This document shows positions 14,869-63,557 of a stretch of DNA of 64,000 nt, in pieces. This stretch comes from Candidatus Daviesbacteria bacterium (lineage in GTDB: Bacteria; Patescibacteriota; Microgenomatia; Daviesbacterales; UBA10151), in assembly GCA_016176465.1 (NCBI GenBank), contig JACOXD010000010.1:7497-71496 (forward strand). Direction: 5' to 3'. Each line of letters starts with the position of its first letter. Positions within the stretch are counted from its first letter, which is position 1. The notes beneath the pieces are model-generated. The model worked only from the letters and a program-made list of their open reading frames with translations. It did no database searches and was not told the origin of the DNA. A program made the position numbers and the translations under genes.

Positions 14869-16125
14869 GTGAATACGTTATTATCTACAGTAATGAATAT
14901 GTTAGTCAAAAAATCTTGGATTTTATACTTACCTTTTTTAACACTTGGAATATTGATATTTCAATCCACACTCCCTTTGTGGTTTGGACATATTTCTACA
15001 GATACTTATGTCTATTATAATAGAGCAAGCTATTTTTTTAACAATCTTAACCTGGCTGATTTCGAGGGAAATGAGCATCTGCCAGGAGCAATCATTTATT
15101 TTATTTTAGCAACCCCTGCATTTTTCTTTAAGTCAACTTGGGAAAGTTATGTTTGGGGCTTTATAACTGTCAATTCAATTGCCACTTTAATAATAGATTT
15201 TTTTATTGCAAAAATTGCAGGATTAAAAAATATATTATTTTTATCCTTAATTTTATTATCAGTTGGCCCGATCTCTCTTTTTAGGTTTGATCTTTTAGTT
15301 GTTTTATTAACTATAATTTCTTTCTATTTTTTTATAAAAGAAAAAAATTTAAAATCTGCTTTCTTTCTTGGAAGTGCAACTTTAGTAAAAATATACCCAG
15401 TAATTTTTTTACCCTATTTACTCTATTTAATATATAAAAAACAAAATATTTTAGAAACTCTTAAATTTTTTTCTACTTATATATTAAGCCTAGTAGGTTT
15501 ACTGTGGCTTTATGTGCTTTTTTTTCAAGTTAGCATGGAAAATATTCTATTTAGTCTAACTTTTCATACATTAAAACCGGTACATACAGAGAGTCTTTGG
15601 ACAACCATCTTAACTATCTATTCGTATCTGGTTAATAATACTTACCCTGAAATTGTTAGTGCCTGGGGAATAAATGGGTTAGCAGAAAAATATTGGCTAC
15701 TACCGCTTTGGTTTTACAACTACGCCTGGGTTTTACCTGTGGGATTGTTTTATATATGGCTTCTTAAAAATAGAAAAAAATTTGAAAATTTTGATATTAG
15801 GATACCAATCTTGATTGTTTTACTTTTTTTAATATTCTCTAAAGTGCTGTCTCACCAATATCTTCTTTGGTTTTTATTACTAATTCCCCTTTTAAACTAT
15901 AAAAGATTAATGAGTAGAGCTTGGATTGTAAATATTTTTTTAATCCTACTAACTAATCTATTACATCAATATATTTATCCTTTAAATTACACACAATTCT
16001 TAAATGATTATTACAACCATAATGTTCTTTCAAGCTATTTATTTTGGCTAAATGCTTTAAGTAATTTAATTTTAGTGATTATTTTTTGGAGAATTTTTAG
16101 GGAAATAAAAATTAAAGATGATTAA
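14869..16125 (+). CDS. Polytopic membrane protein, putative GT-C glycosyltransferase (GT87/DUF2029-like)
   Basis: ~12 TM helices; same architecture as 5076-6455. Confidence 0.45.
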   Translation: MNTLLSTVMNMLVKKSWILYLPFLTLGILIFQSTLPLWFGHISTDTYVYYNRASYFFNNLNLADFEGNEHLPGAIIYFILATPAFFFKSTWESYVWGFITVNSIATLIIDFFIAKIAGLKNILFLSLILLSVGPISLFRFDLLVVLLTIISFYFFIKEKNLKSAFFLGSATLVKIYPVIFLPYLLYLIYKKQNILETLKFFSTYILSLVGLLWLYVLFFQVSMENILFSLTFHTLKPVHTESLWTTILTIYSYLVNNTYPEIVSAWGINGLAEKYWLLPLWFYNYAWVLPVGLFYIWLLKNRKKFENFDIRIPILIVLLFLIFSKVLSHQYLLWFLLLIPLLNYKRLMSRAWIVNIFLILLTNLLHQYIYPLNYTQFLNDYYNHNVLSSYLFWLNALSNLILVIIFWRIFREIKIKDD

Positions 16126-47681: not shown

Positions 47682-48236
47682 TCAAATACCAAAATACCTT
47701 TTATAAACAGATTCTGCCTCCAGTTCTTTTATAGTTAATAATGTTACATTATTACCCAGGTTGTAAAATTTCTTTAATAACTCTATTTCCTCTTTGCAAG
47801 GGTAAGGAATTAACCATAAACTTTTTTGCAAATTATAAAACTGCATCTTTTTAAGAAGCGACCTAAAAGCTTCTGCTTGGCTTTTCTTCCCCTTAGGAAT
47901 ATCATAAGCCACTAATCTCCATTTCCCATCCCATTTTCTTTTCTCTATTTTAGGGTTATTTAAATTTAGCTTGAATAGTTTATTGCTCCCCGTACTGGTT
48001 AGTTTATAGACAATATCTCCATCCTGGTCGATTTTTTCTACTATTCCGGATTTTTGTAACCTATTTAGCTCAAATTTGAGTCTTCGCTTATCAAAATGAC
48101 CCCAAGTTTTATATTGTTTTCTGAGCAAAGGGGACAAAACAACTGGAAGTCCAGGCATTAACAAACTGAGAGCTACAAATCCCGTAATCCCAAGCAAAGT
48201 TAAAACTTCTTTGGTATAAGGATAAGATTTAATCAT
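47682..48236 (-). CDS. PaaX-like regulator family protein (wHTH + PaaX_C/Cas2-like domain) with N-terminal hydrophobic segment
   Basis: W.G.WRLVAYDIP......R..L...L.....SLW pattern; flanked by 24-bp direct repeats. Confidence 0.5.
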   Translation of the reverse strand: MIKSYPYTKEVLTLLGITGFVALSLLMPGLPVVLSPLLRKQYKTWGHFDKRRLKFELNRLQKSGIVEKIDQDGDIVYKLTSTGSNKLFKLNLNNPKIEKRKWDGKWRLVAYDIPKGKKSQAEAFRSLLKKMQFYNLQKSLWLIPYPCKEEIELLKKFYNLGNNVTLLTIKELEAESVYKRYFGI

Positions 48237-49028: not shown

Positions 49029-49307
49029 GTGTCTTACTCTGTCTATATTTTAAGAACTTCATCGAACACTTTATATATTGGGCAAACCAATAATTTAGAA
49101 AAAAGAATTAAAGAGCATAAAAATAAAAAAGGTAAGGGAGCAAAATATATTAGGTCTTTTTCCTCATTTGAATTAGTTTACTTTGAAAAACTCAAAACTA
49201 GATCTGAAGCAATGAAGAGAGAATGGCAACTAAAGGGATGGACAAAAGCCATGAAAGAGACTTTAATCAACTTGGGAAGCAAGTATTTATCCAAGTCCCG
49301 CAGCTAA
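49029..49307 (+). CDS. GIY-YIG nuclease superfamily protein (YhbQ/UPF0213-like)
   Basis: VYILRTSSNTLYIGQTNNLEKRIKEH GIY-YIG motif; 3' end formed by direct repeat. Confidence 0.7.
   Translation: MSYSVYILRTSSNTLYIGQTNNLEKRIKEHKNKKGKGAKYIRSFSSFELVYFEKLKTRSEAMKREWQLKGWTKAMKETLINLGSKYLSKSRS
49278..49305. repeat. Left 28-bp direct repeat AGCAAGTATTTATCCAAGTCCCGCAGCT (att-like, contains tRNA-Gln 3' motif)
   Basis: 27/28 identical to 63612-63639. Confidence 0.65.
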
Positions 49308-49390: not shown

Positions 49391-49663
49391 ATGGCATATA
49401 GACCAAAAGATACTCAAGAAAGAATTGTTCATAGGTTAAAAATAGCTAAAGGTCATTTAGAAAAGGTTATCAAGATGGTTGAGGATGACTGCTACTGCAT
49501 TGATGTTCTCCACCAATCTCAAGCTGTTCAAAAAGCATTAAGAGAAACAGATAACCTCATGCTAGAAAATCATCTTAAAACTTGCGCTATGGATGCCATA
49601 GGTAAAGGTAGAAAAGAAGAAGCAGTTGCTGAAGTGATCCAGGTATTTAAGAAAATGTCTTAA
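49391..49663 (+). CDS. csoR: Copper-sensing transcriptional repressor CsoR/RcnR family
   Basis: 90 aa; RL.RI.GH...V.KM.ED..YC.DVL.Q..AV..AL helix pattern with conserved Cys/His. Confidence 0.8.
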   Translation: MAYRPKDTQERIVHRLKIAKGHLEKVIKMVEDDCYCIDVLHQSQAVQKALRETDNLMLENHLKTCAMDAIGKGRKEEAVAEVIQVFKKMS

Positions 49664-49786
49664 AGAAAGGAGCAGATATGTGCCCTAATTGCGGTTAAGT
49701 AAACTATGACACCAGATAAGAACCTGCTTCGCAGAACCTTGCCTTTTTGACTAGCGTCAAAAACGTAAAATTTTAGTTTTAAAATT

Positions 49787-50149
49787 ATGGAATTAGATAA
49801 GATTTTTGTAGCACTATTTAGTTTAGGAGGTATTCTATTTACTTATTGGTTTTTCTTAATGAGAAATGAAAAGGAGGTAGCTGTTACCTCTGATTCTATA
49901 GATATTACAGTTGAAGGTGGTTACCAACCAGAGGTTATATCTATTCCCAAAGGAAAAACTACCAAGCTTAATTTTCTCAGAAAAGATCCTTCCAGTTGCT
50001 TAGAAGAAGTAGTTTTAGGAGATTTTAAAGTTAGAAAAACACTACCTCTAAATCAAACTGTAACCATTCCGATTACTCCTCAAAAAGAGGGTGAATATGT
50101 TTTTAGCTGTGGAATGAACATGTTCCATGGAAAGATAAAGGTTGTCTAA
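49787..50149 (+). CDS. Membrane-anchored cupredoxin-like domain protein
   Basis: N-terminal TM, C-terminal FSCGMNMFHGKIKVV; paralogous to C-terminus of 62235-63275. Confidence 0.55.
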   Translation: MELDKIFVALFSLGGILFTYWFFLMRNEKEVAVTSDSIDITVEGGYQPEVISIPKGKTTKLNFLRKDPSSCLEEVVLGDFKVRKTLPLNQTVTIPITPQKEGEYVFSCGMNMFHGKIKVV

Positions 50150-50150
50150 T

Positions 50151-50300
50151 ATGAGTAAAAGTAAATTATATACCTGTCCTGAATGTAGATTCTCTTATAA
50201 AGATAAGGCTTTAGCTAAAAAATGTGAGGCTTGGTGCAAAAAGTACAATAGCTGTAATTTAGAAATTACAAAATACTCAGTAAACAGGGAGGTGTTGTAA
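50151..50300 (+). CDS. Small Cys-rich protein (49 aa; CPEC...C..WC...SC) between cupredoxin gene and copA
   Basis: ORF below track threshold; ATG 1 nt after upstream stop; 3' end supplies SD for copA. Confidence 0.4.
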
Positions 50301-50305
50301 AAAGT

Positions 50306-52735
50306 ATGCCAGCAGTGAGCAAGCTCTCTCCTTTGGAGATAAAAAGAACATTTTCAGTACAAGGAATGCACTGTGCTTCCTGCGTGAGGCTTATTGAAAG
50401 AGCTTTGAGTAGAACTAATGGCATATCAGAGGCAAATGTTAATCTTGCAACTAACAAAGCCACCATCACTTATGATCCTAAAAGTGTTAATGATGAGCAA
50501 ATAGAATCTTCTGTATCCAATATAGGTTATAAAGCATTATTAGACGAGGAAGTTAAATCAGAAGATGATGAGAAAAAAGAAAAACAAAAAGAATTAAGAA
50601 AGTTACAGCATAAAGTTGGTATAAGTTTATTTTTAGGATTACTAATTTTATGGGGTTCTTTTCCGGGTTTAATGAATACTGCCCCAGCTATTTTAAGAAA
50701 TTTTTGGATACAGCTTCTCCTTGCTACCCCAGTTCAATTTTGGGCAGGTTTAGATTTTTATAGAGCTACTATTCCAGCATTAAAACATAGAACAGCTAAC
50801 ATGGACACTTTAGTGGCAATTGGTACAACTGTCGCTTATAGTTATTCAGCTTTTGTCACAGCCCTTCCTCAGGTAGTTAAAAGTATTGGTATTGATCCTC
50901 TCCCTTACTTTGATGTGGCAACTATAATTATTGGTTTAATACTTCTTGGTAGATATTTTGAGGCTAAAGCTAAGGCTGGTACGTCTGAAGCAATTAAAAA
51001 ACTAATAGGTTTGCAGGCAAAAACAGCCAGAGTTTTGAGACTCTCCTCTGTCATCTCGAACGATAGTGAGAGATCTGCAGATTCTAATCTAGAGATTTCT
51101 CTCCGCCAGCTGGCGGATCGAAATGACAAAAGTGAAACAAGTGATGAGAGCAAATATTTAGAAGTAGATATTCCTATAGATCAGGTGGTTATAGGAGATA
51201 TCATTAGAGTACGTCCTGGAGAAAAAATTCCAGTTGATGGAGAAATTTTGGAGGGAGAATCCTCAATTGATGAATCAATGATTACGGGAGAAAGTATTCC
51301 AGCTGACAAAACTAAGGGCGATACAGTCGTAGGTGCAACAATTAATAAATCAGGAACATTTACTTATAAAGCTACCAAAGTAGGACAAGAGACTATGCTT
51401 GCCCAAATTATTAAACTTGTTCAAGAAGCTCAGGGTTCAAAAGCTCCTATCCAAAGAATTGCAGATCTTATTTCCTCTTACTTTGTACCTATTGTCATAA
51501 TACTTGCTTTTGCTACCTTTGGTATCTGGTATGTATTTGGTCCAACCCCAGCTCTTTTATACGCACTTCTAAATACTGTAGCAGTTTTAATTATTGCCTG
51601 TCCTTGTGCCATGGGACTGGCTACACCAACAGCTATTATGGTAGGTACAGGAAAGGGTGCAGAGCATGGAATTTTAATTAAAGATGCAGAAAGTTTAGAA
51701 ACTGCCCACAAAATTAAGACGGTCATCTTTGATAAAACTGGAACTTTAACAAAAGGAAAACCAGAAGTGACAGATATCATTGCGAGGAGTGAAATGATGA
51801 AGCAATCTATAAAGAGAAGATCGCCACGCTTCGCTCGCGATGGCATACTTCGTTTGGCTGCTTCAATAGAAAAAGGCTCTGAACATTCTTTAGCTGAGGC
51901 AATAGTCCAAGAAGCTGAAAAACAAAATATTCAACTGGAACCTGTCACAAAGTTCAAAGCTATTGCAGGGCATGGAGTGGAAGGAGTTGTTGATGGAAAG
52001 CAAGTTTATTTTGGAAACCGAAAATTAATGGAAAGAGAAAAAGTAAGAATCCTAAAACTTGTTCAGGATGACATAGAAAGGTTAGAAAGTGAAGGTAAAA
52101 CTGTAATGATATTAGCAACCTCCTCCCGTCATTCTGAGCGAAGCGAAGAATCTCAACTTATTGGTCTTGTGGCTGTAGCAGATACCGTCAAAGATACTGC
52201 TAAAGAAGGTGTAAAAGCTTTGCAGAAAATGGGTATAGAAGTTGTTATGATCACTGGAGATAACACAAGAAGTGCTAAAGCTATTGCAGATCAGGTAGGT
52301 ATTAAAAGAGTTTTGGCAGAAGTACTACCAGATCAAAAAGAAGCTGAAGTAAGGAAGATTCAAGCGGAGGGCAAAAAAGTGGCAATGGTTGGAGATGGGA
52401 TTAATGATGCACCCGCCTTAGCAGCAGCAGATATTGGAATAGCTATGGGAAGTGGTACGGATGTGGCAATTGAGGCAGCGGATATTACCTTAATAAATAA
52501 GGACCTTAAATCTGTAGCTCAAGCTATTAACCTCTCCAAAAAGACAATGAGAACTATAAAATTAAATCTTTTTTGGGCATTTGGCTATAATGTTTCACTG
52601 ATTCCTGTAGCAATGGGAGTTTTATATCCTTTTTGGGGAATATTGTTAAATCCAATCTTTGCCTCAGTTGCTATGGCCACAAGTTCTATATCAGTTGTTG
52701 GAAACTCATTACTTTTAAAAAGAGTAAGGATTTAA
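50306..52735 (+). CDS. copA: Copper-translocating P1B-type ATPase
   Basis: N-terminal HMA GMHCASC, CPC motif [26 protein letters not shown]; contains at least three in-frame low-complexity/palindromic inserts. Confidence 0.9.
51040..51140. repeat. ~100-bp in-frame palindromic insert in copA (includes perfect 14-bp palindrome CCGCCAGCTGGCGG) encoding ~35 aa [36 protein letters not shown]
   Basis: Segment has no counterpart in canonical CopA between TM4 and the actuator domain. Confidence 0.5.
51816..51846. repeat. In-frame GC-rich repeat (reverse orientation, CGCTTCGCTCGCG) in copA N-domain encoding ~[11 protein letters not shown]
   Basis: Shares core with recX insert. Confidence 0.5.
52128..52154. 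repeat. In-frame repeat GTCATTCTGAGCGAAGCGAAGAATCTC in copA encoding [10 protein letters not shown]
   Basis: 29/32 identical to 56521-56552; GTCATTC head shared with element at 297. Confidence 0.6.
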
Positions 52736-53834: not shown

Positions 53835-53873
53835 TTTGACATCTGAATGCAGGGATACTACACTTAGTAGTAG
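53835..53873 (+). promoter_or_regulatory. Promoter TTGACA-17-TACTAC with operator palindrome TACTAC-ACTTA-GTAGTA (copy 1)
   Basis: Same palindrome at 58048 and 61442, each ending at a start codon. Confidence 0.55.
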
Positions 53874-53894: not shown

Positions 53895-54941
53895 ATGAAC
53901 AAAATACTAATTCTTATAGTTCTATTAATCGTATCAGCAGCAGGGATATTTTTGTATATAAATAGATTTCAAAAACCAGTTGAAGTCTCTCAAGAGGTCT
54001 TGAATAAACTTAATGAAAATAAACCTACTCTTTCCCAAGATGAGGATAGGTTTTTAAATCTGCTTGAGCAAAACGCAGTCTCAGGTGGTCCTCCAAAAGA
54101 TGGCATCCCCGCCATAGATAAACCTCAATATACAACTGCTGCTGAAGCTGATTCTTGGCTTTTACCAAATGATGTTGTTTTTGGAATAGATTACCAAGGT
54201 TTTGTTGCAGCATACCCTCAAAGGATTTTAGTTTGGCATGAAATATTAAATGATCAAATAAACAGACAAAAGGTATCTATTAGTTATTGTCCTCTAACTG
54301 GCACTGCCATTGGTTTTGAGGCTTCAGTAACTAAAGATCTAGATTCATCCTTTGGAGCATCAGGAAAGTTGGTTAACTCTAATTTAATTATGTATGACAG
54401 AATTAGTGATTCCTACTGGCCTCAAATTTTAGGTAAAGCCATTAATGGTCCAGCTAAGGGGAGGAATTTGCAAGAGTTTCCAGTAGTTTGGACAACATGG
54501 GATAAATGGAAAACAAAGTTTCCAGAAACAAAAGTACTTTCTAAAAATACTGGATTTGTTCGTAACTATGATGTTAATGGTGATCCCTATGGATCATATC
54601 TTAGAGAAGATAAAGGATATTATGCTTCTGACAGGCTAATTTTTGAACCGATAAATAAGCAAAGCTTTTCTTCGAATAAGGATGATCGTTTAAAACCGAA
54701 AACAGTAGTAGTGGGAATTCGTGATAAGGATGGTAATGCTGTAGCAATTTTGAAAGATTCTCTGCGCCAACAAAAGAAAATGGAAGTTTCTTTAGGAGAT
54801 AAAGTGGTGGTAGTTGATTATGATCAAAGCCTAGATTTTTACCAAGCATCTGTAAAAGATACAAAAGAAGCGATTAATGCTTTTGATGCTATGTGGTTTG
54901 CCTGGGTAGCATTCTATCCCAATACTAAGTTAATAGAATAA
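53895..54941 (+). CDS. DUF3179 domain protein
   Basis: N-terminal TM; conserved SYCPLTGT block. Confidence 0.55.
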   Translation: MNKILILIVLLIVSAAGIFLYINRFQKPVEVSQEVLNKLNENKPTLSQDEDRFLNLLEQNAVSGGPPKDGIPAIDKPQYTTAAEADSWLLPNDVVFGIDYQGFVAAYPQRILVWHEILNDQINRQKVSISYCPLTGTAIGFEASVTKDLDSSFGASGKLVNSNLIMYDRISDSYWPQILGKAINGPAKGRNLQEFPVVWTTWDKWKTKFPETKVLSKNTGFVRNYDVNGDPYGSYLREDKGYYASDRLIFEPINKQSFSSNKDDRLKPKTVVVGIRDKDGNAVAILKDSLRQQKKMEVSLGDKVVVVDYDQSLDFYQASVKDTKEAINAFDAMWFAWVAFYPNTKLIE

Positions 54942-54942
54942 A

Positions 54943-55506
54943 ATGTTAGCGTTATTTTTATCAATAATTACACAGAGAAAATTTTTCTTAGTAGCCTTGA
55001 TTGTTTTTGTGGTATATATTCTAATTTATTTAGCTGCAGTAGGACATTTGATCTTCACATCCCGCATGGAGCCAGCTTATTCATTTTTAGAAGTAAAATT
55101 CTTGACAAACTGGCAACAACTTCTACTGCGACAAAGGTCACCTTTTTTGTTTGAAGCAATTGGGGCAATCTATATAGGTCCCAATATCAAACTATTTCTC
55201 TCAATTCCTAACTTGATACTTGCTTCAGTGTTAGGATTTCTTGTCGGATCTAACTTTGCCTTAAGTTATTATAACTTTAAGAGATTAGGGTTATCAGGTG
55301 GAAAAGGAGCAGTTGCACTTTTGGGAACCATTCCGGCTATTGTTTCGGGAAGTGTTTGTTGTGTTCCTACTCTGATTCTGGTGCTAGGATTACAATTAAC
55401 AGCTACTTTAGCCACAGCGTGGTCTTTTTTTATTCCACTTTCAATAATCCTGCTTATTTTAAGTCTAGTATGGTCTGTAAAAAGAATTGAAACTGGAAGA
55501 TTGTGA
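54943..55506 (+). CDS. Membrane protein with MerT-like intramembrane Cys-Cys motif (GSVCCVPTLILVLG)
   Basis: 4-5 TM; CC pair in TM resembling MerT TM1 (TCCLGPLVL). Confidence 0.4.
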   Translation: MLALFLSIITQRKFFLVALIVFVVYILIYLAAVGHLIFTSRMEPAYSFLEVKFLTNWQQLLLRQRSPFLFEAIGAIYIGPNIKLFLSIPNLILASVLGFLVGSNFALSYYNFKRLGLSGGKGAVALLGTIPAIVSGSVCCVPTLILVLGLQLTATLATAWSFFIPLSIILLILSLVWSVKRIETGRL

Positions 55507-55522
55507 GGGGAGGTGAAGAATA

Positions 55523-55771
55523 ATGGCAAAAGTAAAAGTTTATTCAATAACAACGTGTCCATATTGTCATATGCTCAAAGAATATTTAAAGGAGAAGAAT
55601 GTAGCTTTTGAAGATATAGTTCTTGACTACAGTCCCGATAAGGCAGTCGAGGCTATTCACATATGTCAGTCAATGGGTGTCCCTTGCACACATATCGTAA
55701 AGGACGATGGAAAGGAAGTTGCCATCTTGGGATTTGACAAAGAAGCAATAGATCGCGCACTCGGACTGTAA
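55523..55771 (+). CDS. Glutaredoxin/NrdH-like redoxin (CPYC)
   Basis: 82 aa; VYSITTCPYCHMLKEYL. Confidence 0.75.
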   Translation: MAKVKVYSITTCPYCHMLKEYLKEKNVAFEDIVLDYSPDKAVEAIHICQSMGVPCTHIVKDDGKEVAILGFDKEAIDRALGL

Positions 55772-55804
55772 TGGAGGGAGGTGCAAAAGGTTATTAATAA
55801 AAAC

Positions 55805-57193
55805 ATGAATAACAAATATGATGTTATTGTAATTGGGGGAGGATCGGCAGGGTTTTCTGTTTTGGAGCAGATTGCCCATAAAGGCTTAAAGATTGCCCTG
55901 GTGGAAAATAGAAAATTGGGAGGATCTTGTCCTAATTTTGCCTGTGTACCCTCTAAAGCTTTAATCAAATGTGCTGAAGTTCTACACACAGCTTTGAATG
56001 CTGATAAATTTGGTATAAATGTTTCTAATATAGGATTTGACTGGAAAAGAGTACAAGAATTTAGAGCAGGTAAGGTAGCTAATACTGCTGCTGCAGAGTC
56101 TGAACAAGATTTAAAAGAAAAAGAGGTTGATCTTATTTGGGGCACTGCCAAGTTTATTTCAGCTTCTGAGATTGAAGTAGATGGGAAGATTTATTCAGCT
56201 GATAAGTTTGCCATTACCACCGGCTCAAGGCCTTTGGTTTTACCAATTGATGGTTTGGAAGAGATTGGTTTTTTAGATTCTGATCAAGGTCTGCAAATAG
56301 ATAAATTGCCTAAATCCTTAACTATACTAGGTGCTGGGCCTGTGGGAATTGAAATAGCTCAGATGTTTGCCAGATTTGGGGTCAAAGTAGCAGTGATCAA
56401 TAGAGGTGGACAGATACTTGGTAGAGAAGAACCAGAAGTGGCAAATCTCGTTCAGGGATTTTTAGAAAAAGAGGGAGTGGAGTTTTTATTAAATGCTCAA
56501 GTTAAAAAAGTGATGCTTCAGCGTCATCCTGAGCGCAGCGAAGGATCTCAAAATCTGAAGCTACTGGAGATAGAAGTCAGTGGGCAGAAAGGAACAATGG
56601 AAGTGGAGCAAATTCTGGTTGCTCCAGGTAGGATTCCCAATATTGACATGCTTGATCTTAAAAAAGCTGGAGTGAAAACTTATGAGAGAGGAATTGTGGT
56701 TGATGAGTACATGCAGACCTCACAGCCTCACATCTATTCTGCTGGAGATGTGGCAGGAATCATGCTTTTTACCCATGCAGCATCTTATGAGGGCTTTATT
56801 ATTGGACAAAACCTCTTGGGCAACAAAATGGAGGTAGATCATAAGGTGATACCAAGAGGAACGTTTTCTGATCCGGAGGTAGGTAGCGTGGGAATAATGG
56901 AAAAAGAGGCCAGGGACAAGGGTTTGAAAGTACAAACTGCTTTGATGGATTATACAGGAGGGAGAGGAGATATCCAGGATGACCCCCTAGGATTAACTAA
57001 GGTGACTGTTGATGCTAAAACCAGACAAATCCTTGGGGCATCAGTAGTGGGTAGAGGCGCTGCTGAGTTTGTGCATATGATAGCCATGGCCATGCATCAT
57101 AAAATTAAAGTTGATGATTTAGATACTCTTGTTTATGCCTTTCCCACTTATGCAGAAGGGTTAGCTGGAATTACTTCCTATCTTAAGGATTAG
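55805..57193 (+). CDS. Class I pyridine nucleotide-disulfide oxidoreductase (MerA/Lpd-like; lacks NmerA and C-terminal Cys pair)
   Basis: GGGSAGF, redox CxxxxC GGSCPNFACVPSK, HPxE-type dimer interface; ATG 55805 preferred over GTG 55781; carries in-frame repeat at 56514-56559. Confidence 0.8.
   Translation: MNNKYDVIVIGGGSAGFSVLEQIAHKGLKIALVENRKLGGSCPNFACVPSKALIKCAEVLHTALNADKFGINVSNIGFDWKRVQEFRAGKVANTAAAESEQDLKEKEVDLIWGTAKFISASEIEVDGKIYSADKFAITTGSRPLVLPIDGLEEIGFLDSDQGLQIDKLPKSLTILGAGPVGIEIAQMFARFGVKVAVINRGGQILGREEPEVANLVQGFLEKEGVEFLLNAQVKKVMLQRHPERSEGSQNLKLLEIEVSGQKGTMEVEQILVAPGRIPNIDMLDLKKAGVKTYERGIVVDEYMQTSQPHIYSAGDVAGIMLFTHAASYEGFIIGQNLLGNKMEVDHKVIPRGTFSDPEVGSVGIMEKEARDKGLKVQTALMDYTGGRGDIQDDPLGLTKVTVDAKTRQILGASVVGRGAAEFVHMIAMAMHHKIKVDDLDTLVYAFPTYAEGLAGITSYLKD
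56514..56559. repeat. In-frame repeat GCTTCAG-CGTCATCCTGAGCGCAGCGAAGGATCTCAAAAT-CTGAAGC encoding QRHPERSEGSQNLK
   Basis: Flanked by 7-bp inverted repeat; homologous to copA insert at 52128. Confidence 0.6.
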
Positions 57194-57196
57194 CAT

Positions 57197-57730
57197 ATGT
57201 ACAATCAACAAAAACTTTTAAAATTCAGAAAGCAAAAAGACGAAGCTTGGAAAGAAGATGCCCAGTCTCCCTTAGCTGAGGAGCAAAAGCGAAGCTTTAA
57301 AGGTCTAAATTATTTTCCTCCTAATCCTGATTTTAGTTTTGAACTAGAGTTAAATAAAAATATCCCTGGTGTGGGTGAGAGAGTAGTAATTAAAACAACG
57401 GGTGGGGATGAGCAGGTCTATTTAAGAGCTGGAAGGGTCAAGTTCAATGTTGAGGGTAAAGAGGTAGAGGCATTAGTGTTTGAAGATCCAGAGCAAGAAC
57501 AGTTTCAATATTATTTATTATTTAGAGACCAAACAACAGGAAAGGAAACTTATGAAAATGGCAGAATGTTACAAATCCCTAAAAAAGGAGATAAGTTAGT
57601 AATCGATTTTAATTATGCATATAATCCCTATAGCTCATATAATAACAATTGGGATTGTCCAATTACCCCTCAAGAAAATATCTTACCTTTGGCAATTCAG
57701 GCTGGAGAAAAGATTTTTAAGAACTTATGA
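57197..57730 (+). CDS. DUF1684 domain protein
   Basis: Pattern F.GL.YFPP...F; WDCPITP motif. Confidence 0.5.
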   Translation: MYNQQKLLKFRKQKDEAWKEDAQSPLAEEQKRSFKGLNYFPPNPDFSFELELNKNIPGVGERVVIKTTGGDEQVYLRAGRVKFNVEGKEVEALVFEDPEQEQFQYYLLFRDQTTGKETYENGRMLQIPKKGDKLVIDFNYAYNPYSSYNNNWDCPITPQENILPLAIQAGEKIFKNL

Positions 57731-57772
57731 ATGTTGTGTATAAAATTCTGCCTGGAAGGGGGTGATAGCTTA

Positions 57773-58000
57773 ATGAAGAAACTTCTTATAGGAGGGGTTG
57801 CAGCTGCAATAATGTATGCAAGCATGGTAGTACCTGTTTTTGCTGATGGGCCAACTAGTCCCAATGTTAGTCCAGTTGTTGTTCCCTTAGCTCAGACAGG
57901 AACTTTTGGTCAAACTGTTTGTAGCGTTCTTGGCCAGGCTAATCTTGAGAATAATGTGGTTTTAACAGTACAGGGGCATGACCCCTCTCACATTAACTGA
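57773..58000 (+). CDS. Small secreted protein (signal peptide)
   Basis: MKKLLIGGVAAAIMYASMVVPVFA signal; SD GGAAGGGGGTGA. Confidence 0.4.
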   Translation: MKKLLIGGVAAAIMYASMVVPVFADGPTSPNVSPVVVPLAQTGTFGQTVCSVLGQANLENNVVLTVQGHDPSHIN

Positions 58001-58047
58001 AGTGGTCTACTTCCTAAAAATAAACAGTTGCTTTATTAAAAACTTAG

Positions 58048-58067
58048 TACTACACTAAGTAGTAGTA
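58048..58067 (+). promoter_or_regulatory. Operator palindrome TACTAC-ACTAA-GTAGTA (copy 2) ending 2 nt before blaI-like start
   Basis: Read directly; nested larger palindrome ACTTAGT...ACTAAGT. Confidence 0.55.
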
Positions 58068-58069
58068 AT

Positions 58070-58462
58070 ATGGAAAAACAGCAAAAGGTTGGTAAAGTGT
58101 TAGGTGAGTTAGAATCAGAAGTGATGGAGATAATTTGGCAATCTAAAATGCCAATTTCTGTAAGAACTGTTACTCAAATCTTGCAAACAAAGCGCCAGAT
58201 TGCTTATACAACAGTCATGACCATTATGGGGAGATTAACTGATAAAGGTTTGCTTAAGCGTACAGAATCTGGTAAAGCATATATTTACAGATCAGTCTAT
58301 TCAAAAGAAAAGTTTCTTACCAGAGTATCCCGCCAGATTATTAAAAATTTTGTTGCTAATTTTGGTGACGGCGCAGTAGCTCATTTTGCAGCGGAAGTGG
58401 AAAAACTAGAACCTTCTAAGAGGAAAGACTTAACTAAATTATTAAAGGAGGTAAGAAAATAG
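58070..58462 (+). CDS. BlaI/MecI/CopY family winged-helix repressor (no C-terminal metal-binding Cys motif)
   Basis: LGELESEVMEIIW....VR.V..IL...R.IAYTTVMT...RL..KGLL. Confidence 0.8.
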   Translation: MEKQQKVGKVLGELESEVMEIIWQSKMPISVRTVTQILQTKRQIAYTTVMTIMGRLTDKGLLKRTESGKAYIYRSVYSKEKFLTRVSRQIIKNFVANFGDGAVAHFAAEVEKLEPSKRKDLTKLLKEVRK

Positions 58463-58463
58463 C

Positions 58464-59477
58464 ATGGGTGCTAACAAAGCCTTCTGCATGCTCCTACTCT
58501 CTTTTGTTGTTGCTTTAGTTGGTTTGGGTACTGTGTTTTTTAAAACAGTTCCGCTCCTTCTTTCTCATGCAGTTTATGTTTGCCAAGAGACTTTCTCTAA
58601 TATTCTTTTTGGCATCTCGCATTCTGTTCCTCTTGTTCTAATTACTTTAGTAATCATGGTTTTACTTATTGGTCTTGTAACTTTATTGATACAAGTTTTA
58701 AAAACTAGAAATTATCTTAAGAAGCATATGAGAGAAAGAGTACCCATCCCCTCTAGTTTGATAGAAATAACCAAAGAACTTGGCTTAAATGATAGCGTTG
58801 ATGTTGTTAAAGATAGAAGTAAATTTTCTTTCTGTTATGGATTGATTCACCCTAGAATTTGTTTAAGTACAGGTCTTTTAAGATCATTAAATACAAGAGA
58901 ACTTAAAGCAGTGATACTTCATGAGAGTTACCATGTTAAAAATCGGGATCCACTTAAAATAATCCTTGGCAAAACAGCATCTTTAATGTTCTTCTTTATT
59001 CCATTGCTAAAAGATATTCAAAACTTCTATGCTTTATCAAAAGAGATAGCTGCAGATAAACTTGTGGTCGGTAATGGATATAGACATTCCCTAATTTCCG
59101 TTCTTTCAAAGCTTTTAGTGGCTGGCTCATCTAAATTCAGTGGCGTAGCAGCACTAGCTAGTTTAGATGATTTAGAAAGAAGGATACTGTTGCTCACAGG
59201 TAATCAGAAAAGATCAATATTTAAACCCTCACTGCTCAACATATCAATGTCGGCTTTTGTAGTTTTGTTTTCCCTGGCACTTATGAATACCCCAGCTTAT
59301 GCAGTTTCTGATCATGAAGGGTCTATGGAAAGCTCAATGTTTACTGCGAAGCAGGAAGTTTACTTCATTTGTCCTTTTGGGGATAAATGTGCGCTGTCTT
59401 GCAAGGCAAAGGAAGAGGAGGGTGGAAATTACAGTCAAGACTTAATGTATACACCGATGCATTACACACCAAAATGA
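58464..59477 (+). CDS. BlaR1-like M56 family membrane metalloprotease lacking penicillin-binding sensor domain; Cys-rich C-terminal tail
   Basis: HEXXH HESYHVKNRD; 4 TM; C-terminal CPFGDKCALSC. Confidence 0.7.
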   Translation: MGANKAFCMLLLSFVVALVGLGTVFFKTVPLLLSHAVYVCQETFSNILFGISHSVPLVLITLVIMVLLIGLVTLLIQVLKTRNYLKKHMRERVPIPSSLIEITKELGLNDSVDVVKDRSKFSFCYGLIHPRICLSTGLLRSLNTRELKAVILHESYHVKNRDPLKIILGKTASLMFFFIPLLKDIQNFYALSKEIAADKLVVGNGYRHSLISVLSKLLVAGSSKFSGVAALASLDDLERRILLLTGNQKRSIFKPSLLNISMSAFVVLFSLALMNTPAYAVSDHEGSMESSMFTAKQEVYFICPFGDKCALSCKAKEEEGGNYSQDLMYTPMHYTPK

Positions 59478-60442
59478 ACAGTAAATTAGTTTATATCATA
59501 GTTGCGGTTTTGCTTTTAGGAGGAGTAGTTTTCTTTGCTCAAAAACAAGCGGGTGCTCCGAAACTTAAATCTGAAACAGCACAAAGCTTACCTGCAACAA
59601 CGCAAGAAGAATCTGTTAGGGAAAATTCAACTTATGGTCATGTACACGCTTTAATTTCTAATCCTCAAGATAACAGCCTATTGTTGGGTACTCATGAAGG
59701 TTTGTTTAAGAGTGCAGATGGAGGGAAAACTTTTCAGAAAGTGGGTGTTAAAGGTGAAGTTAATGCAATGGATTTCATGAACTTTGCGTATGACCAGAAT
59801 AATAAAATCATTTATGCTGGTGGACATGATTTGGGAGTTGTTAAAAGCACTGATGGTGGAGTAACTTGGGCAAAAACAGATTCAGGGATTCAAGGTACGG
59901 ATATTCATGCTTTGGCTATGAACCCCCTTGATACTAACAGGTTATATGTTTTCTCAGTAGGTAATGGAGTTTATGGAACTAAAGATGGGGCAAAAAGTTG
60001 GTATAGAATTGATGATGGACCAGCGAACCCATCTGTAGTAGCTTTTGGATATATGGCAACTCCCTCAAGTATGGACCGCGGTATGAAAACTGATAAAACT
60101 ACTAATATTGGCTACCTTTGGGCAGGAACTGGAGGAGGGTTATATAGCTCATTTGCTTGTTTCTGTGGCTGGACTAAAACATCAGGTGTAACAGATAGAG
60201 CCACTATTTATACACTTGCTCCTGATCCAATAGACAAAAGTAGTATGCTTGCAGGAACCAAAGATGGTATTTACAAAACGACTGATGAGGGGAGAAATTT
60301 TACTAAGATAAGTGATATTAAAGACATTGCTGCCCTTAATTTTAATACATCTAATCCTAAAACAATTTATGCTGCTACTGCCGATGGTGCGATTTATAGA
60401 AGTGATGATGAAGGTAAGAATTGGAGTAAAGTGAATGAATAA
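59474..60442 (+). CDS. Ycf48-like/BNR-repeat beta-propeller protein, membrane-anchored
   Basis: Repeated S.DGG.TW / T.DG..W blades; ATG overlaps upstream stop (ATGA). Confidence 0.55.
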   Translation: MNSKLVYIIVAVLLLGGVVFFAQKQAGAPKLKSETAQSLPATTQEESVRENSTYGHVHALISNPQDNSLLLGTHEGLFKSADGGKTFQKVGVKGEVNAMDFMNFAYDQNNKIIYAGGHDLGVVKSTDGGVTWAKTDSGIQGTDIHALAMNPLDTNRLYVFSVGNGVYGTKDGAKSWYRIDDGPANPSVVAFGYMATPSSMDRGMKTDKTTNIGYLWAGTGGGLYSSFACFCGWTKTSGVTDRATIYTLAPDPIDKSSMLAGTKDGIYKTTDEGRNFTKISDIKDIAALNFNTSNPKTIYAATADGAIYRSDDEGKNWSKVNE

Positions 60443-60671
60443 GCAAAGCTTGTCTTTTGCTGTCGCAAAACGTAAGTTTTTTAACAGCTGTAGGCGCTGT
60501 TTAAACCCCTGGATAATTGCCTTAATTACTGTTGTAGTGGTTGGATTATTAATTTTTCTTCCTATTTTAGGAGTAGCAACTTTGATAGCAGCTCTTCCTC
60601 TGGTAGGTTGTACTGTAATGTGTGGTGCAATGGCTCTTATGATGCGGGATCACAAAAAAGATAAAAGTTAA
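60435..60671 (+). CDS. Small membrane protein with intramembrane Cys cluster (GCTVMCG)
   Basis: ORF, 2 TM. Confidence 0.4.
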   Translation: MNKQSLSFAVAKRKFFNSCRRCLNPWIIALITVVVVGLLIFLPILGVATLIAALPLVGCTVMCGAMALMMRDHKKDKS

Positions 60672-60673
60672 GT

Positions 60674-61414
60674 ATGAGATTGATTTTCCTGCCCATTGTT
60701 GTATTTATTATCTTAGCTGTAACGCTTTTATCGCAAAATTTATTTCCAAAAAATACACTCGAGTCAACTATTGCAAATTGGAATGATGGAACAGATGCTT
60801 TTTATCAGCAGGTTTTAAAAAGTGATGGTGATTGGGTAGATCATGCAGGTGAGGCAGTTTTTGATAACTATCCTGTAAAAAGTATTTCAAAGCTGGAAAC
60901 AGAAAATATTTTGGCACAAGCAAGGCAGCCACAACCACCAGTTTTGGGACTGCATACTGCACCTGACGGAGCAGAAAAATGGATTGAGATAGACCTATCT
61001 AATCTTAAACTTTATGCTTGGGAAGGAAACCGCAAAGTTTATGAATTTTTAATATCAACAGGCCGTCCTGGCTATAACACCCCTACAGGTGAGTTTAGGG
61101 TTTGGAGAAAGGTACTATCACAAGCCTATAAAGGCGGCTCAAGAGAAAGGGGCGATTACTACTACTTACCTAATGTTCCCTTCTCTTTATTTTTCGGTGG
61201 CGGAAATGTTTCTAACTGGAAAGGTTATGCTATCCATGGAGCATATTGGCACAGTGACTTTGGTATAAAAAACAGGAGTAGTGGGTGTGTAAATGTGAAA
61301 CCTGAAGAAGCAGGACTTTTGTACCAATGGGCTGGTCCTGCTATGCCTGCTGGGACAGGAGTTTTAAATTCAACTCCTGATAACCCTGGTGTAAGAGTAA
61401 TCGTACATGATTAA
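60674..61414 (+). CDS. L,D-transpeptidase (YkuD domain)
   Basis: YAIHGAYWHSDFG...SSGCVNV catalytic His/Cys motif. Confidence 0.75.
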   Translation: MRLIFLPIVVFIILAVTLLSQNLFPKNTLESTIANWNDGTDAFYQQVLKSDGDWVDHAGEAVFDNYPVKSISKLETENILAQARQPQPPVLGLHTAPDGAEKWIEIDLSNLKLYAWEGNRKVYEFLISTGRPGYNTPTGEFRVWRKVLSQAYKGGSRERGDYYYLPNVPFSLFFGGGNVSNWKGYAIHGAYWHSDFGIKNRSSGCVNVKPEEAGLLYQWAGPAMPAGTGVLNSTPDNPGVRVIVHD

Positions 61415-61421
61415 TTTCCCC

Positions 61422-61461
61422 TTGACAAGTTAAAGTTTATCTACTACAGTAAGTAGTAGTA
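61422..61461 (+). promoter_or_regulatory. Promoter TTGACA-17-TACAGT with operator palindrome TACTAC-AGTAA-GTAGTA (copy 3) abutting start codon
   Basis: Read directly. Confidence 0.55.
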
Positions 61462-62231
61462 TGGATAAACAGTCAGGTATTCGAATCAACCTTTTTATTT
61501 CAACCCCAATAGCTATTTTAATTGGGTCTGTGATAATCGCTTTAGCTATTCTGGTAAATGGTGGAATCATCAAATTTAAAGGATCAGTTGCTACTAAATC
61601 ACCAACTACTCAAGCAGCTCAAGCTCCAACTGCAACAGCCCCACAAGCTCCCCAACCAGAACCTCAAGCTGGCCCTGTAGAACCCCTAAAAGATGAAGAT
61701 CATGTCAGGGGTGAAAGAAAAGCTAGGATTTTACTTTTTGAATACTCAGATTTAGAGTGTCCCTTCTGTAAAAGATTTCATCCCACTGCTAAACAAATAG
61801 TAGATACCTACAAAGGAGAAGTGGCTTGGGTATATAGGCATTTTCCTTTGGATCAAATCCATTCTAAAGCAGATAAAGAAGCAGAGGCTATAGAGTGTGC
61901 AAATGAGTTGGGTGGTGAAGATGGGTTTTGGAAGATGACAGACAAGATATTTGAGGTAACACCTTCTAATAATGGTTTAAATTTGGAAGATCTGCCAAAA
62001 CTGGCAGGGGAAGTAGGGCTAAATCAAGCTACATTTAAGTCATGTTTAGATAGTGGTAAATACACAGCTCATGTAGAAGAGGATTATCAGGGTGGAATAA
62101 AAGCTGGTATTACAGGTACACCTGGCAATATTCTACTTGATACTAAACTCAATAAGACTAAATTAATACCTGGTGCACTACCCTTTGAGCAATTTAAACA
62201 AGCAATAGATGCTATGCTTAAGGAAGCATAA
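61461..62231 (+). CDS. DsbA-family thiol:disulfide oxidoreductase (CPFC), membrane-anchored
   Basis: FEYSDLECPFCKRFH thioredoxin-fold active site. Confidence 0.75.
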   Translation: MDKQSGIRINLFISTPIAILIGSVIIALAILVNGGIIKFKGSVATKSPTTQAAQAPTATAPQAPQPEPQAGPVEPLKDEDHVRGERKARILLFEYSDLECPFCKRFHPTAKQIVDTYKGEVAWVYRHFPLDQIHSKADKEAEAIECANELGGEDGFWKMTDKIFEVTPSNNGLNLEDLPKLAGEVGLNQATFKSCLDSGKYTAHVEEDYQGGIKAGITGTPGNILLDTKLNKTKLIPGALPFEQFKQAIDAMLKEA

Positions 62232-62234
62232 CAA

Positions 62235-63275
62235 ATGGATCTTTGGTTAATATTTCTAACTGGTTTAACTGTTGGTGGACTTACCTGTCTAGCTGTGCAG
62301 GGGGGTCTTCTCGCCTCTACTATTGCTGCAAGGGAAGAGGAAGATATAGACGCAGGAAGCAGAAGAAAACATACTATATTCCCCACTGCAGCCTTTTTAA
62401 CTACTAAGCTTATTGCCTATACGATTTTAGGCTTTCTTTTAGGACTATTCGGACAAACCCTACAGATCTCTGGTAGTGCTCAAACTGTGATGCAGCTTCT
62501 AGCTGGAGGATACATGATAGCTGTGGCACTAAATCTTCTTAATGTTCACCCAATATTCAGATACGCCATTATTCAACCCCCAAGATTTTTAACCAGATTA
62601 ATTAGAAATCAAACTAAATCTAAAGATATTTTTGCTCCAGCCTTGCTTGGTGTTATGACCATCTTTATTCCTTGTGGAACAACTCTAGCTATGGAAGCAT
62701 TAGCAATCTCTTCAGGTAAACCATTTCTCGGCTCAATGATTATGGGAGCATTTACTTTAGGCACTATGCCACTATTTTTTGGTATTGGGTTCTTAACTTC
62801 TTTGCTGGGGGATACTTTCAGAGCCAAATTTTTCAAAATAGCAGGAGTTTTGGTGTTATATCTAGGTATTATCTCATTTAATGGGGCACTAGTTGCTAGC
62901 GGTTCTCCTATTACTTTACAGTCAATTGGACAAGCTTTACCAATTGAGATTGATTTATCTGGAGGGCAAGCTGCAGCATCTGCTGATTCAAATGTAAAAC
63001 TCGTTGGTGGAGTTCAAACTGTCGATATGTCTGTTTTCCCCACCAGCTATAGTCCAAACTACATTCAGGTAAAAGCAGGCACTCCTGTTAGGTTGAATTT
63101 AACTCCATCAGGTGGTTTAGGATGTACTTCATTTTTTAGAATTCCAAAACTGAGAATTACTAAAAAATTGGCTCAAGGCGCAACTGAAACTGTTGAGTTT
63201 ACCCCTCAAAGTCCTGGAAGATTAACCTTTACCTGTTCAATGGGAATGTATACAGGGACAATAGAGGTTATATAA
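62235..63275 (+). CDS. DsbD/CcdA-like (DsbD_2) membrane protein with intramembrane Cys pair fused to C-terminal cupredoxin-like domain
   Basis: TM Cys in GGLTCLAVQGG and FIPCGTTLA; C-terminal FTCSMGMYTGTIEVI. Confidence 0.55.
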   Translation: MDLWLIFLTGLTVGGLTCLAVQGGLLASTIAAREEEDIDAGSRRKHTIFPTAAFLTTKLIAYTILGFLLGLFGQTLQISGSAQTVMQLLAGGYMIAVALNLLNVHPIFRYAIIQPPRFLTRLIRNQTKSKDIFAPALLGVMTIFIPCGTTLAMEALAISSGKPFLGSMIMGAFTLGTMPLFFGIGFLTSLLGDTFRAKFFKIAGVLVLYLGIISFNGALVASGSPITLQSIGQALPIEIDLSGGQAAASADSNVKLVGGVQTVDMSVFPTSYSPNYIQVKAGTPVRLNLTPSGGLGCTSFFRIPKLRITKKLAQGATETVEFTPQSPGRLTFTCSMGMYTGTIEVI

Positions 63276-63320
63276 GCGGAGCTTGATACTTCGTATTGAG
63301 GCGAAGCCTCTAATTTCATT

Positions 63321-63557
63321 ATGAGTAAAATAGTAAAGAAAAAATTAAAGATTGATGGGATGCACTGCAGCAGCTGTGCCATGAATATAGAGTTTGATTT
63401 AGAGGATGTGGAAGGTATTAAATCGGCTAAAGCTAGCCTGGTAAAAGAGGAATGCGAAGTAGAATTTGATGAAGAAAAAGTTAATGAGCAAATGATTATC
63501 CAAACTATCCAGAAAACTGGGTACCAAGCAAGGTTACAAGAAGAGTCTAAGCAGTAA
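63321..63557 (+). CDS. copZ: Heavy-metal-associated (HMA) copper chaperone
   Basis: GMHCSSC motif, 78 aa ferredoxin-like. Confidence 0.8.
   Translation: MSKIVKKKLKIDGMHCSSCAMNIEFDLEDVEGIKSAKASLVKEECEVEFDEEKVNEQMIIQTIQKTGYQARLQEESKQ

Follow-up and report, generated by a model that had tools for sequence, protein, structure and literature searches.

We analysed a 64,000-nucleotide stretch of DNA from a Candidatus Daviesbacteria bacterium (contig JACOXD010000010.1, positions 7,497 to 71,496; hereafter the window), a member of the candidate phyla radiation (CPR), and in particular a pair of genes of the BlaI/BlaR type. All genes and promoters of the window described here lie on the forward strand unless stated otherwise. 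The first gene of the pair (58070-58462) encodes a 130-residue winged-helix repressor of the BlaI/CopY family (PF03965, Penicillinase_R, 3.8e-28), and the second (58464-59477) a 337-residue M56 zinc metalloprotease, as judged from Pfam, the alignment to BlaR1 and the fold predicted by AlphaFold2 (AF2). The two genes are 1 nt apart, and they are paired in nearly all related loci with the upstream flank present. An earlier note, made from the letters of the window, had read the protease as a BlaR1-like candidate for a non-beta-lactam signal transducer that carries a Cys-rich tail in place of a penicillin-binding sensor.

The profile PF05569 (Peptidase_M56) matched residues 57-243 of the protease with E=2.5e-16 and 60.1 bits against a cutoff of 31, covering profile positions 100-295 of 296, and among the matches listed it was present in all of at least 120 homologues. 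M48/HtpX models of Pfam and NCBIfam also matched, more weakly, and the deposited identical protein carries the annotation 'M48 family metalloprotease'. The HEXXH zinc-binding and catalytic motif, which the earlier note had pointed out in its context HESYHVKNRD, is H153-E154-S-Y-H157 (58920-58934) and aligns to H201-E-x-x-H205 of BlaR1. The third zinc ligand, E194 (59043-59045), lies within E194-I-A-A-D198, which aligns to E-V-E-A-D of BlaR1. H153, E154, H157, E194 and D198 were invariant in 93/93 sequences of an alignment of M56 homologues, which extends down to 38% identity and underlies the residue counts given below. In a phmmer search against the PDB, BlaR1 of Staphylococcus aureus (8EXP and others) was the sole match.

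The protein ends 62 residues past its last hydrophobic helix, and it has no penicillin-binding domain and no SxxK motif. Consistent with this, no transpeptidase or beta-lactamase Pfam match was found in it, and the NCBIfam BlaR1/MecR1 models scored 25-34 bits on it against cutoffs of 400-1200, in agreement with the earlier statement that a class D beta-lactamase-like sensor is lacking. A homologue search returned 163 proteins, nearly all of 310-350 residues and with a coverage of 98-100%, and the penicillin-binding domain was absent from all of them.

Hydropathy placed hydrophobic segments at residues 7-25, 58-76, 164-182 and 256-274. The count of four transmembrane (TM) segments given previously thus stands for the segments themselves, but not for four crossings: segment 164-182 sits between HEXXH and the Glu ligand and is homologous to the re-entrant helices of BlaR1, and it is therefore not a full membrane crossing. 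In BlaR1 the helices of the zinc site are re-entrant (PMC9834060). We ran AF2 with the 93-sequence alignment, in part to see whether C40 and the tail cysteines approach each other. The core of the model (roughly residues 55-275) had a pLDDT >90, and the top PDB matches in Foldseek were the BlaR1 cryo-EM structures 8EXS, 8EXQ, 8EXP, 8EXT and 8EXR (E=1e-6 to 1e-5, probability 1.0), with TM-scores of only ~0.4, followed by ZMPSTE24/Ste24 as the next fold matches. No ligand-binding fold was predicted in the model. Across the family, the net charge was +5.1 after helix 2, +3.3 before the last helix and -1.8 in the tail. From this positive-inside charge bias, together with the architecture of BlaR1, the protease domain is predicted to be cytoplasmic, and the loop of residues 26-57 and the tail to lie outside, which bears on the question, raised in the earlier note, of the side of the membrane on which the tail is found.

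The predicted extracytoplasmic loop (residues 26-57; 58539-58634) contains C40 (58581-58583), H35 and H53, which were conserved in 93/93, 77/93 and 83/93 sequences, respectively; the loop of the window protein contains no Met. In position it corresponds to the EL1 loop of BlaR1, the signal-transmitting element of that protein (PMC9834060), and to a loop with two conserved Met residues in PetP, a cyanobacterial protease discussed below. On the cytoplasmic side, a beta-hairpin by the active-site helix (58833-58862; strands 122-125 and 131-135 in the AF2 model) bears a Cys pair, C124 and C133, conserved in 87/93 and 91/93 sequences and also kept in tail-less relatives from Chloroflexota. Column conservation further marked out a loop P-[KS]-[FL]-S-G-V-A-A-[FL] (residues 223-231; 59130-59156). 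This could be an autocleavage or autoinhibitory loop, comparable to the loop in which BlaR1 cleaves itself at S283|F284 (PMC9834060). The last TM helix (256-274), as defined by hydropathy, is followed by a near-invariant P-x-[YH]-A (277-280, from motif counts; together 59229-59303). In its form P-V-[YH]-A this motif resembles a site for signal peptidase I (SPase), and shedding of the tail may be part of the mechanism, by analogy with BlaR1, which is cut by SPase just past TM4, at Gly331, a cut that ligand binding has been proposed to block (PMC9834060).

The C-terminal tail (residues 276-337; 59289-59474) is conserved across the family. It corresponds to the tail of about 60 residues with CPFGDKCALSC that had been noticed before; it measures 62 residues, and in the window protein its cysteines stand in F-I-C303-P-F-G-D-K-C309-A-L-S-C313 (59370-59402). 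In the family, the order of elements is P-V-[YH]-A, an acidic linker, F-[IV]-C-P-[FY]-G-[DG]-x-C-x-x-S-C, and finally N-[FY]-S...[LF]-[YF]-T-P. C313 was found in 90/93, C303 in 82/93 and C309 in 76/93 sequences, and the tail is kept down to 38% identity and in more than 100 Microgenomates homologues of ~325-340 residues. The linker is strongly acidic and enriched 6-fold in Met (10.7% versus 1.7% elsewhere in the proteins) and 3-fold in His (7.2% versus 2.4%). Five sequences have a Met in place of C303 (position -10), and among the 13 sequences that miss C309 (position -4), 8 have a Met at -3 and 2 a His at -4. An exchange of Cys for Met or His appears to fit metal ligands, and not disulfide partners.

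To ask whether the tail occurs as a module elsewhere, a tail-only profile was searched against 1.84 billion representative proteins. It gave 21 matches, which were, apart from repeat noise, essentially all the C-termini of proteins of ~325-340 residues or fragments of such proteins. The tail is therefore a lineage-specific appendage rather than a shared domain. We also scanned one genome per species, using search patterns specific to this clade, and 33 loci were returned. Full-length relatives came only from metagenome-assembled genomes (MAGs) of the Microgenomates type, namely Daviesbacteria, Levyibacteriota and some labelled 'uncultured Gammaproteobacteria', while Chloroflexota and other CPR lineages matched over the protease core only. 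Loci that we fetched are numbered L001 onwards, and member proteins carry P numbers. In the MAGs labelled 'uncultured Gammaproteobacteria' (L012, L015-L018, L020-L023) the loci share their gene order with the Daviesbacteria locus, at 37-49% identity, and have the same operator; the taxonomic label of these MAGs is probably wrong.

The repressor was compared with its relatives from the fetched loci in an alignment of 33 sequences (that of the window and 32 others). Its best PDB match was BlaI of Mycobacterium tuberculosis (2G9W, 4.6e-11), followed by MecI and BlaI. The best-scoring NCBIfam model was TIGR02698 (CopY_TcrY), although with 58.7 bits the score stayed below its cutoff of 121.95. The CopY-type C-terminal CxCxxxxCxC is not present in the window repressor, which contains no Cys at all, in agreement with the lack of the CopY metal-binding tail noted before; 30/32 relatives likewise have none, making 31/33 in total. 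A repressor that senses metal directly, with CopY-like Cu(I)/Zn(II) allostery, was ruled out on this ground. BlaI is cut by BlaR1 between Asn101 and Phe102 (PMC9834060). In pairwise alignment, the L-N-F of BlaI and MecI falls on A-H105-F106 of the window repressor, which makes His105|Phe106 the putative scissile bond. The P1' Phe was kept in 32/33 aligned repressors, and the residue before it was mostly His, with Asn in L007 and L018. Cleavage of the repressor at a BlaI-like site is therefore plausible by alignment.

The pair belongs to a regulon that can be delimited by an operator. A 17-bp palindrome, TACTAC-N5-GTAGTA, has three perfect matches in the window against 0.05 expected from dinucleotide-preserving shuffles (n=100), and 0/100 shuffles reached three. 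The copies sit 3-23 nt upstream of start codons. Operator 1, TACTACACTTAGTAGTA (53856-53872), lies before the ATG of a DUF3179 gene at 53895 and over the -10 box of a promoter TTGACA-17-TACACT (53836-53864). Operator 2, TACTACACTAAGTAGTA (58048-58064), ends 5 nt before the repressor ATG at 58070. It covers the -10 box of the presumed promoter of the repressor-protease operon (58028-58056), which we read from the sequence as -35 TTGCTT (58028-58033), a 17-nt spacer and -10 TACACT (58051-58056); with 8/12 consensus matches this promoter falls outside the promoter-scan listing. The position of operator 2 would imply autoregulation of the repressor. Operator 3, TACTACAGTAAGTAGTA (61442-61458), lies over a promoter TTGACA-17-TACAGT (61422-61450) and 3 nt before the ATG of a DsbA-like gene at 61461. 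Promoter-like sites in the region were overall not above chance (28 versus 30.3 expected), and the informative signal is limited to the register: in the scan, two operator copies overlap a -10-like TACACT or TACAGT exactly 17 nt after a perfect TTGACA. An operator placed over the -10 box is the layout to be expected if repression works by promoter occlusion. An alternative 7-bp inverted repeat, ACTTAGT-N5-ACTAAGT, was dropped as operator candidate in favour of the overlapping palindrome; it occurs as a single exact site, with 3 matches versus 4.9 expected.

The operator is conserved along with the pair. It was found without mismatch in 9/9 loci first fetched by protein identity and, after the genome scan, in ~19 distinct CPR loci, typically with one copy before the repressor gene and another before the operon that follows the protease. 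The site before the repressor gene was present, at one mismatch or less, in 15/18 related distinct loci. All related CPR loci have the operator ahead of the operon downstream. The consensus core is TACTACA-N3-TGTAGTA, of which the window has a TACA-N3-AGTA version. Sites of the TACA/TGTA type are used by BlaI, MecI and CopY, and the cop box reads TACAnnTGTA; the predicted operator has a like half-site, with a spacing of 3 instead of 2. In L007, operator copies (1281-1297, 9074-9090 and 15013-15029) were also seen before a gene for an HtrA-like Trypsin/PDZ protease, a DsbB gene and an opposite-strand DsbD_2-cupredoxin gene, which points to a wider regulon for envelope stress in some lineages.

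Downstream of operator 3 lies the core regulon (61461-63557), whose genes were assigned by Pfam and by motif. It encodes a DsbA-like thioredoxin-fold protein with CPFC (61461-62231), a DsbD_2 membrane domain fused to a CupA-like cupredoxin with C297...C334-S-M-G-M (62235-63275), and a small heavy-metal-associated (HMA) protein with CSSC (63321-63557). The order DsbA-like, DsbD_2-cupredoxin and small HMA protein with CxxC is syntenic across loci, some of which add a multicopper oxidase (L003, L006), DsbB and a second DsbA (L007), DUF3105 or a BNR beta-propeller to the operon. The DsbD_2-CupA-like fusion is conserved in ~12 related loci, including L001, L006-L010, L015, L017, L022 and L023. Neither a beta-lactamase nor a PBP2a gene was found among the genes that the operator assigns to the regulon, in the window and in the related loci alike. 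Palindrome and conserved synteny together would thus define a copper/thiol regulon.

Upstream of the pair the window carries a CsoR repressor, a CupA homologue and a CopA P1B-ATPase (49391-52735; Pfam, with the CupA match below), a module without the palindrome. Since this module lies just upstream, the pair is embedded in a copper island; the module also adjoins the pair in L001, L006, L009, L017 and L022. The regulon of the pair is the Cu(I) and thiol-disulfide part of this island, and CsoR covers cytoplasmic copper and efflux. The two cupredoxins of the window matched CupA (4F2E/2MRY) with 1.4e-21 for the protein beside csoR and 1.3e-5 for the fusion, and their Cys and C-x-M-x-M ligands align. 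CupA is a pneumococcal Cu(I) chaperone with the chemistry given in PMC7558416, and a 2020 review described it as restricted to a few streptococci. The CupA-like cupredoxin of the CsoR module (120 residues; 49787-50149) is thus found in a CPR bacterium, beside CsoR instead of CopY.

The closest precedent for such a pair is PetR/PetP of the cyanobacterium Synechocystis sp. PCC 6803, where degradation of PetR requires PetP and copper (Garcia-Canas et al., bioRxiv 10.1101/2020.07.31.226407; PNAS 2021). PetR is a BlaI/CopY-family protein without the CopY cysteines and PetP an M48/M56 protease without a beta-lactam domain (bioRxiv 10.1101/2020.07.31.226407). Both systems thus have a Cys-free BlaI/CopY regulator directly before such a protease and an output related to copper. 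They differ in several respects. PetP ends at its last TM segment (TMs 4-21, 28-50, 65-87 and 256-278), and M53 and M58 in a 14-residue loop are its proposed ligands, whereas the CPR protein, compared with PetP by the published description of the latter, has two N-terminal helices, a Cys/His loop without Met and a Cys/Met/His tail of 50-60 residues. The PetR operator is GAC-N5-GTC, in contrast to TACTACA-N3-TGTAGTA, and PetRP switches petE and petJ (plastocyanin and cytochrome c6), whereas the CPR regulon consists of Dsb-like, CupA-like and HMA stress genes. No cyanobacterial locus was among the 33 matches of our genome scan, the patterns of which are specific to the CPR clade. The novelty implied in the earlier note does not hold in this respect, as a sensor-less protease and copper-dependent degradation of its repressor had already been published for PetRP. 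The principle of copper-dependent BlaI/M56 proteolysis is hence known; what is new is the CPR family, its sensor candidate, its operator and its stress regulon. In the literature that we searched, the CPR BlaI/M56 family was undescribed.

With BlaR1/BlaI and MecR1/MecI (S. aureus, Bacillus licheniformis) the CPR pair shares the M56 fold, a HEXXH...E site borne by re-entrant helices, a same-family repressor with a TACA/TGTA-type operator over the promoter, the P1' Phe at the aligned cleavage site, an extracellular loop before the protease helix and a possible SPase site. BlaR1 and MecR1 differ by a penicillin-binding domain of ~250 residues with SxxK and by a beta-lactamase or PBP output, neither of which the CPR protein has, and the Pfam profile, over its first 100 positions, has no match in the N-terminal membrane region of the CPR protein. 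CopY/TcrY of Firmicutes (with CupA and CopA in Streptococcus pneumoniae) resembles the CPR system in the best NCBIfam model, the cop-box-like operator and the presence of CupA and CopA in the locus, but the CPR repressor lacks CxCxxxxCxC and any Cys, and here the CupA-CopA operon stands beside CsoR, not CopY. Pairs of an M56 protease without a transpeptidase domain and a BlaI-type repressor are also formed by Rv1846c/Rv1845c of M. tuberculosis, CenIR of Clostridioides difficile (PMC13492132) and PvmSR of Pseudomonas aeruginosa (bioRxiv 10.64898/2026.08.03.742534). The mycobacterial BlaI (2G9W), itself the partner of a sensor-less BlaR, has His-Phe at the aligned cleavage site. These systems control ATP synthase or beta-lactamase genes, cell-envelope genes or virulence genes, without a copper context, and the extracellular parts of the Rv1845c, CenIR and PvmSR proteases are unrelated to the Cys/Met/His tail. 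The P. aeruginosa preprint (bioRxiv 10.64898/2026.08.03.742534) and the mycobacterial systems cited in it are thus further examples of sensor-less pairs.

On balance we lean, with a little more belief than doubt, towards a switch of the BlaI/BlaR type, working by regulated proteolysis as in PetR/PetP, that governs a regulon for copper and thiol stress of the envelope in a CPR bacterium, with the loop and the tail as the place where the signal is sensed. Without signal, the Cys-free repressor dimer would occupy TACTACA-N3-(T/A)GTAGTA and cover the -10 box of three promoters, those of its own operon, of the DsbA-like/DsbD_2-CupA-like/HMA operon and, in the window, of the DUF3179/glutaredoxin/disulfide-reductase operon. 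Copper, or thiol damage caused by copper, would be registered at the outer face of the membrane by the extracytoplasmic elements of the protease, i.e. the loop with C40, H35 and H53 and the tail with its Met/His linker and C303, C309 and C313. By analogy with the EL1 loop of BlaR1, this would shift the position of the helix running into the zinc-protease domain in the cytoplasm, upon which the protease would cut the dimerisation region of the repressor at the aligned His105|Phe106 and the regulon would be derepressed. Cytoplasmic copper would be handled separately by the adjacent CsoR-CupA-CopA module. We infer repressor proteolysis, copper as the signal, and loop and tail as the sensing site. 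The copper/thiol reading is based on the Cu(I) and thiol motifs of the regulon, the CupA homologues, the neighbouring multicopper oxidase, CopA and CsoR genes and the PetRP precedent. Extracytoplasmic sensing is favoured because C40 and C313 are near-universal and predicted to lie outside, and because of the Met/His linker and the ligand-like exchanges. The proposal of a non-beta-lactam, BlaR-type transducer with a copper/thiol output is upheld by the conserved operator and regulon, the intact catalytic residues, the P1' Phe and PetR/PetP.

There are several points against the role given to the tail in this model. That the tail is the sensor, as the earlier note suggested, is plausible, since it is family-specific, predicted outside and metal-ligand-like, but this is contradicted in part. 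In a subclade (L008, L012-L014; P0074, P0083), TM1, the Met/His linker and C303/C309 are missing, while C40, C313, both operators and the regulon are retained. Tail-less relatives from Chloroflexota adjoin CopA (L028, L036), a cupredoxin protein (L032) or, in L035, CcdA together with a redoxin, and such like contexts indicate that the copper/thiol link is independent of the tail and older than it. Conservation of the cytoplasmic pair C124/C133 extends further than that of the tail. Only two or three clades show the Cys-to-Met exchanges, which do not count as independent events. In the AF2 model the loop (34-53) and the tail (276-337) had a pLDDT of only 41-60, and as neither has a confident structure, a metal site formed jointly by the two is conjecture. 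Finally, the regulon is as much one of thiol-disulfide exchange as of copper, and the signal could accordingly be redox.

A more specific form of the favoured model, which we put forward only tentatively, is that Cu(I) or a copper-catalysed disulfide bridges C40 and C313, with C303, C309 and the linker acting as a copper antenna. By pulling on the helix that enters the protease domain, the bridge would trigger cleavage of the repressor; the induced DsbA-like and DsbD_2-CupA-like proteins would reset the sensor by stripping the copper or reducing the bridge, and SPase would shed unliganded tails at the conserved P-V-Y-A, as in BlaR1. Should this hold, it would give a sensor-less BlaR-family protease a defined ligand-binding site for the first time, and CPR bacteria would have, beside CsoR, a second tier of copper sensing that is extracytoplasmic. 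The same two cysteines could instead belong to an extracytoplasmic thiol-disulfide redox sensor, not one of copper, in which the formation or loss of a C40-C313 disulfide activates the protease and the DsbA-like and DsbD_2 proteins so induced reset it. In favour of such a sensor, C40 (93/93) and C313 (90/93) are the two extracytoplasmic Cys kept even where C303 and C309 are deleted; the DsbA-like oxidoreductase is moreover the most constant gene after the operator, DsbB and an HtrA-like protease are added in L007, and CcdA and a redoxin occur in L035. We nevertheless consider it unlikely, because it leaves the Met/His linker and the replacements of Cys by Met or His unexplained, the regulon includes CupA-like and HMA Cu(I) proteins and multicopper oxidases, and copper is the signal in the sole studied sensor-less homologue for which a signal is known.

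The signal might also be sensed outside the tail, either by C124/C133 through Cu(I) binding or oxidation or by the C40 loop alone, while the tail modulates stability, for example through shedding by SPase. PetP, in which a Met loop was proposed as the site, has no tail whatsoever; C124/C133 are kept in a wider clade that includes tail-less Chloroflexota proteins beside CopA, the regulon is kept in the subclade without C303/C309, and the near-invariant P-V-Y/H-A resembles an SPase site at the place where BlaR1 is cut. On the other hand, with CsoR already beside the pair a second cytoplasmic copper sensor is less obviously useful, and purifying selection on the tail down to 38% identity is unexpected for a mere spacer, so that we give this explanation a small share of our belief. 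Much less probable still is a housekeeping, HtpX-like protease of membrane quality control that is merely co-transcribed with an autoregulated repressor. The weak M48/HtpX matches and the lack of a predicted ligand-binding fold would agree with it, but the M56 score is well above that of M48 and BlaR1 is the top fold match, and the pairing with a BlaI-type repressor across ~40 loci, the P1' Phe and the conserved operator-defined regulon follow the logic of BlaIR and PetRP. Nothing was found in favour of truncation of a once full-length, beta-lactam-sensing BlaR1, the pseudogene case that would have told against the original proposal. It is excluded by 163 same-length homologues with a conserved tail and none with a penicillin-binding domain, a stop codon that overlaps the next start (ATGA), and a tail profile that was found as a C-terminus only.

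It is now recognised that sensor-less pairs make up most of the BlaR/BlaI family. A 2026 paper reported that most annotated BlaIR systems are without a beta-lactam domain. Apart from PetRP, with copper, a signal is known for almost none of the sensor-less pairs. The CPR family offers a short conserved candidate sensor that is accessible to peptide synthesis, a sharply defined 17-bp operator and a compact regulon of recognisable copper/thiol proteins. Through these three assets, it becomes possible to test directly, in a heterologous host, how an M56 protease that lacks a penicillin-binding domain detects its signal. The locus also indicates that ultra-small CPR bacteria keep two regulators of copper stress, CsoR and a proteolytic switch, and it extends CupA-type chaperones, including the DsbD_2-CupA fusion, beyond streptococci.

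Several further genes belong to the operons of the window. Directly after the protease gene follow a BNR/F510_1955-like beta-propeller gene (59474-60442; Pfam/NCBIfam), the ATG of which overlaps the protease stop codon (ATGA), a gene for a 78-residue membrane protein with CxxC/CxxxC motifs (60435-60671) and a gene with a domain match to YkuD L,D-transpeptidases (60674-61414). No operator or gap lies between them, and these genes (59474-61414) are therefore co-operonic with the protease gene. The start of the beta-propeller is most likely the ATG at 59474, and the listed start at 59387 is probably wrong. The BNR gene and the gene for the 78-residue membrane protein travel together in L006, L009 and L010, and in L009 and L010 they stand directly after the M56 gene. 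The cell-wall output suggested in the earlier note comes down to the YkuD gene in the operon of the window, which recurs only in the closely related L012 and L013; the copper/thiol part of that suggestion is the one that the regulon reflects.

On the other side of the pair, downstream of operator 1, six genes (53895-58000; assigned by domains and motifs) form an extension of the regulon that is specific to the window, an operator ahead of a DUF3179 cluster having been seen in the window only. They encode a DUF3179 protein, a 187-residue membrane protein with a CC motif, a glutaredoxin-like protein with CPYC, an FAD-dependent pyridine-nucleotide disulfide reductase with CPNFAC, a DUF1684 protein and a small secreted protein. 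A C-terminal Cys pair is typical of MerA. A mercury-resistance reading of this operon, with the FAD reductase and the CC membrane protein as its basis, was dropped, as the reductase lacks that pair and nothing else supported it. Just upstream of the copper island lie genes for a 184-residue PaaX_M/Cas2-like protein (47682-48236, reverse strand) and a 92-residue protein with a GIY-YIG nuclease domain (49029-49307), and these may mark the boundary of a mobile element.

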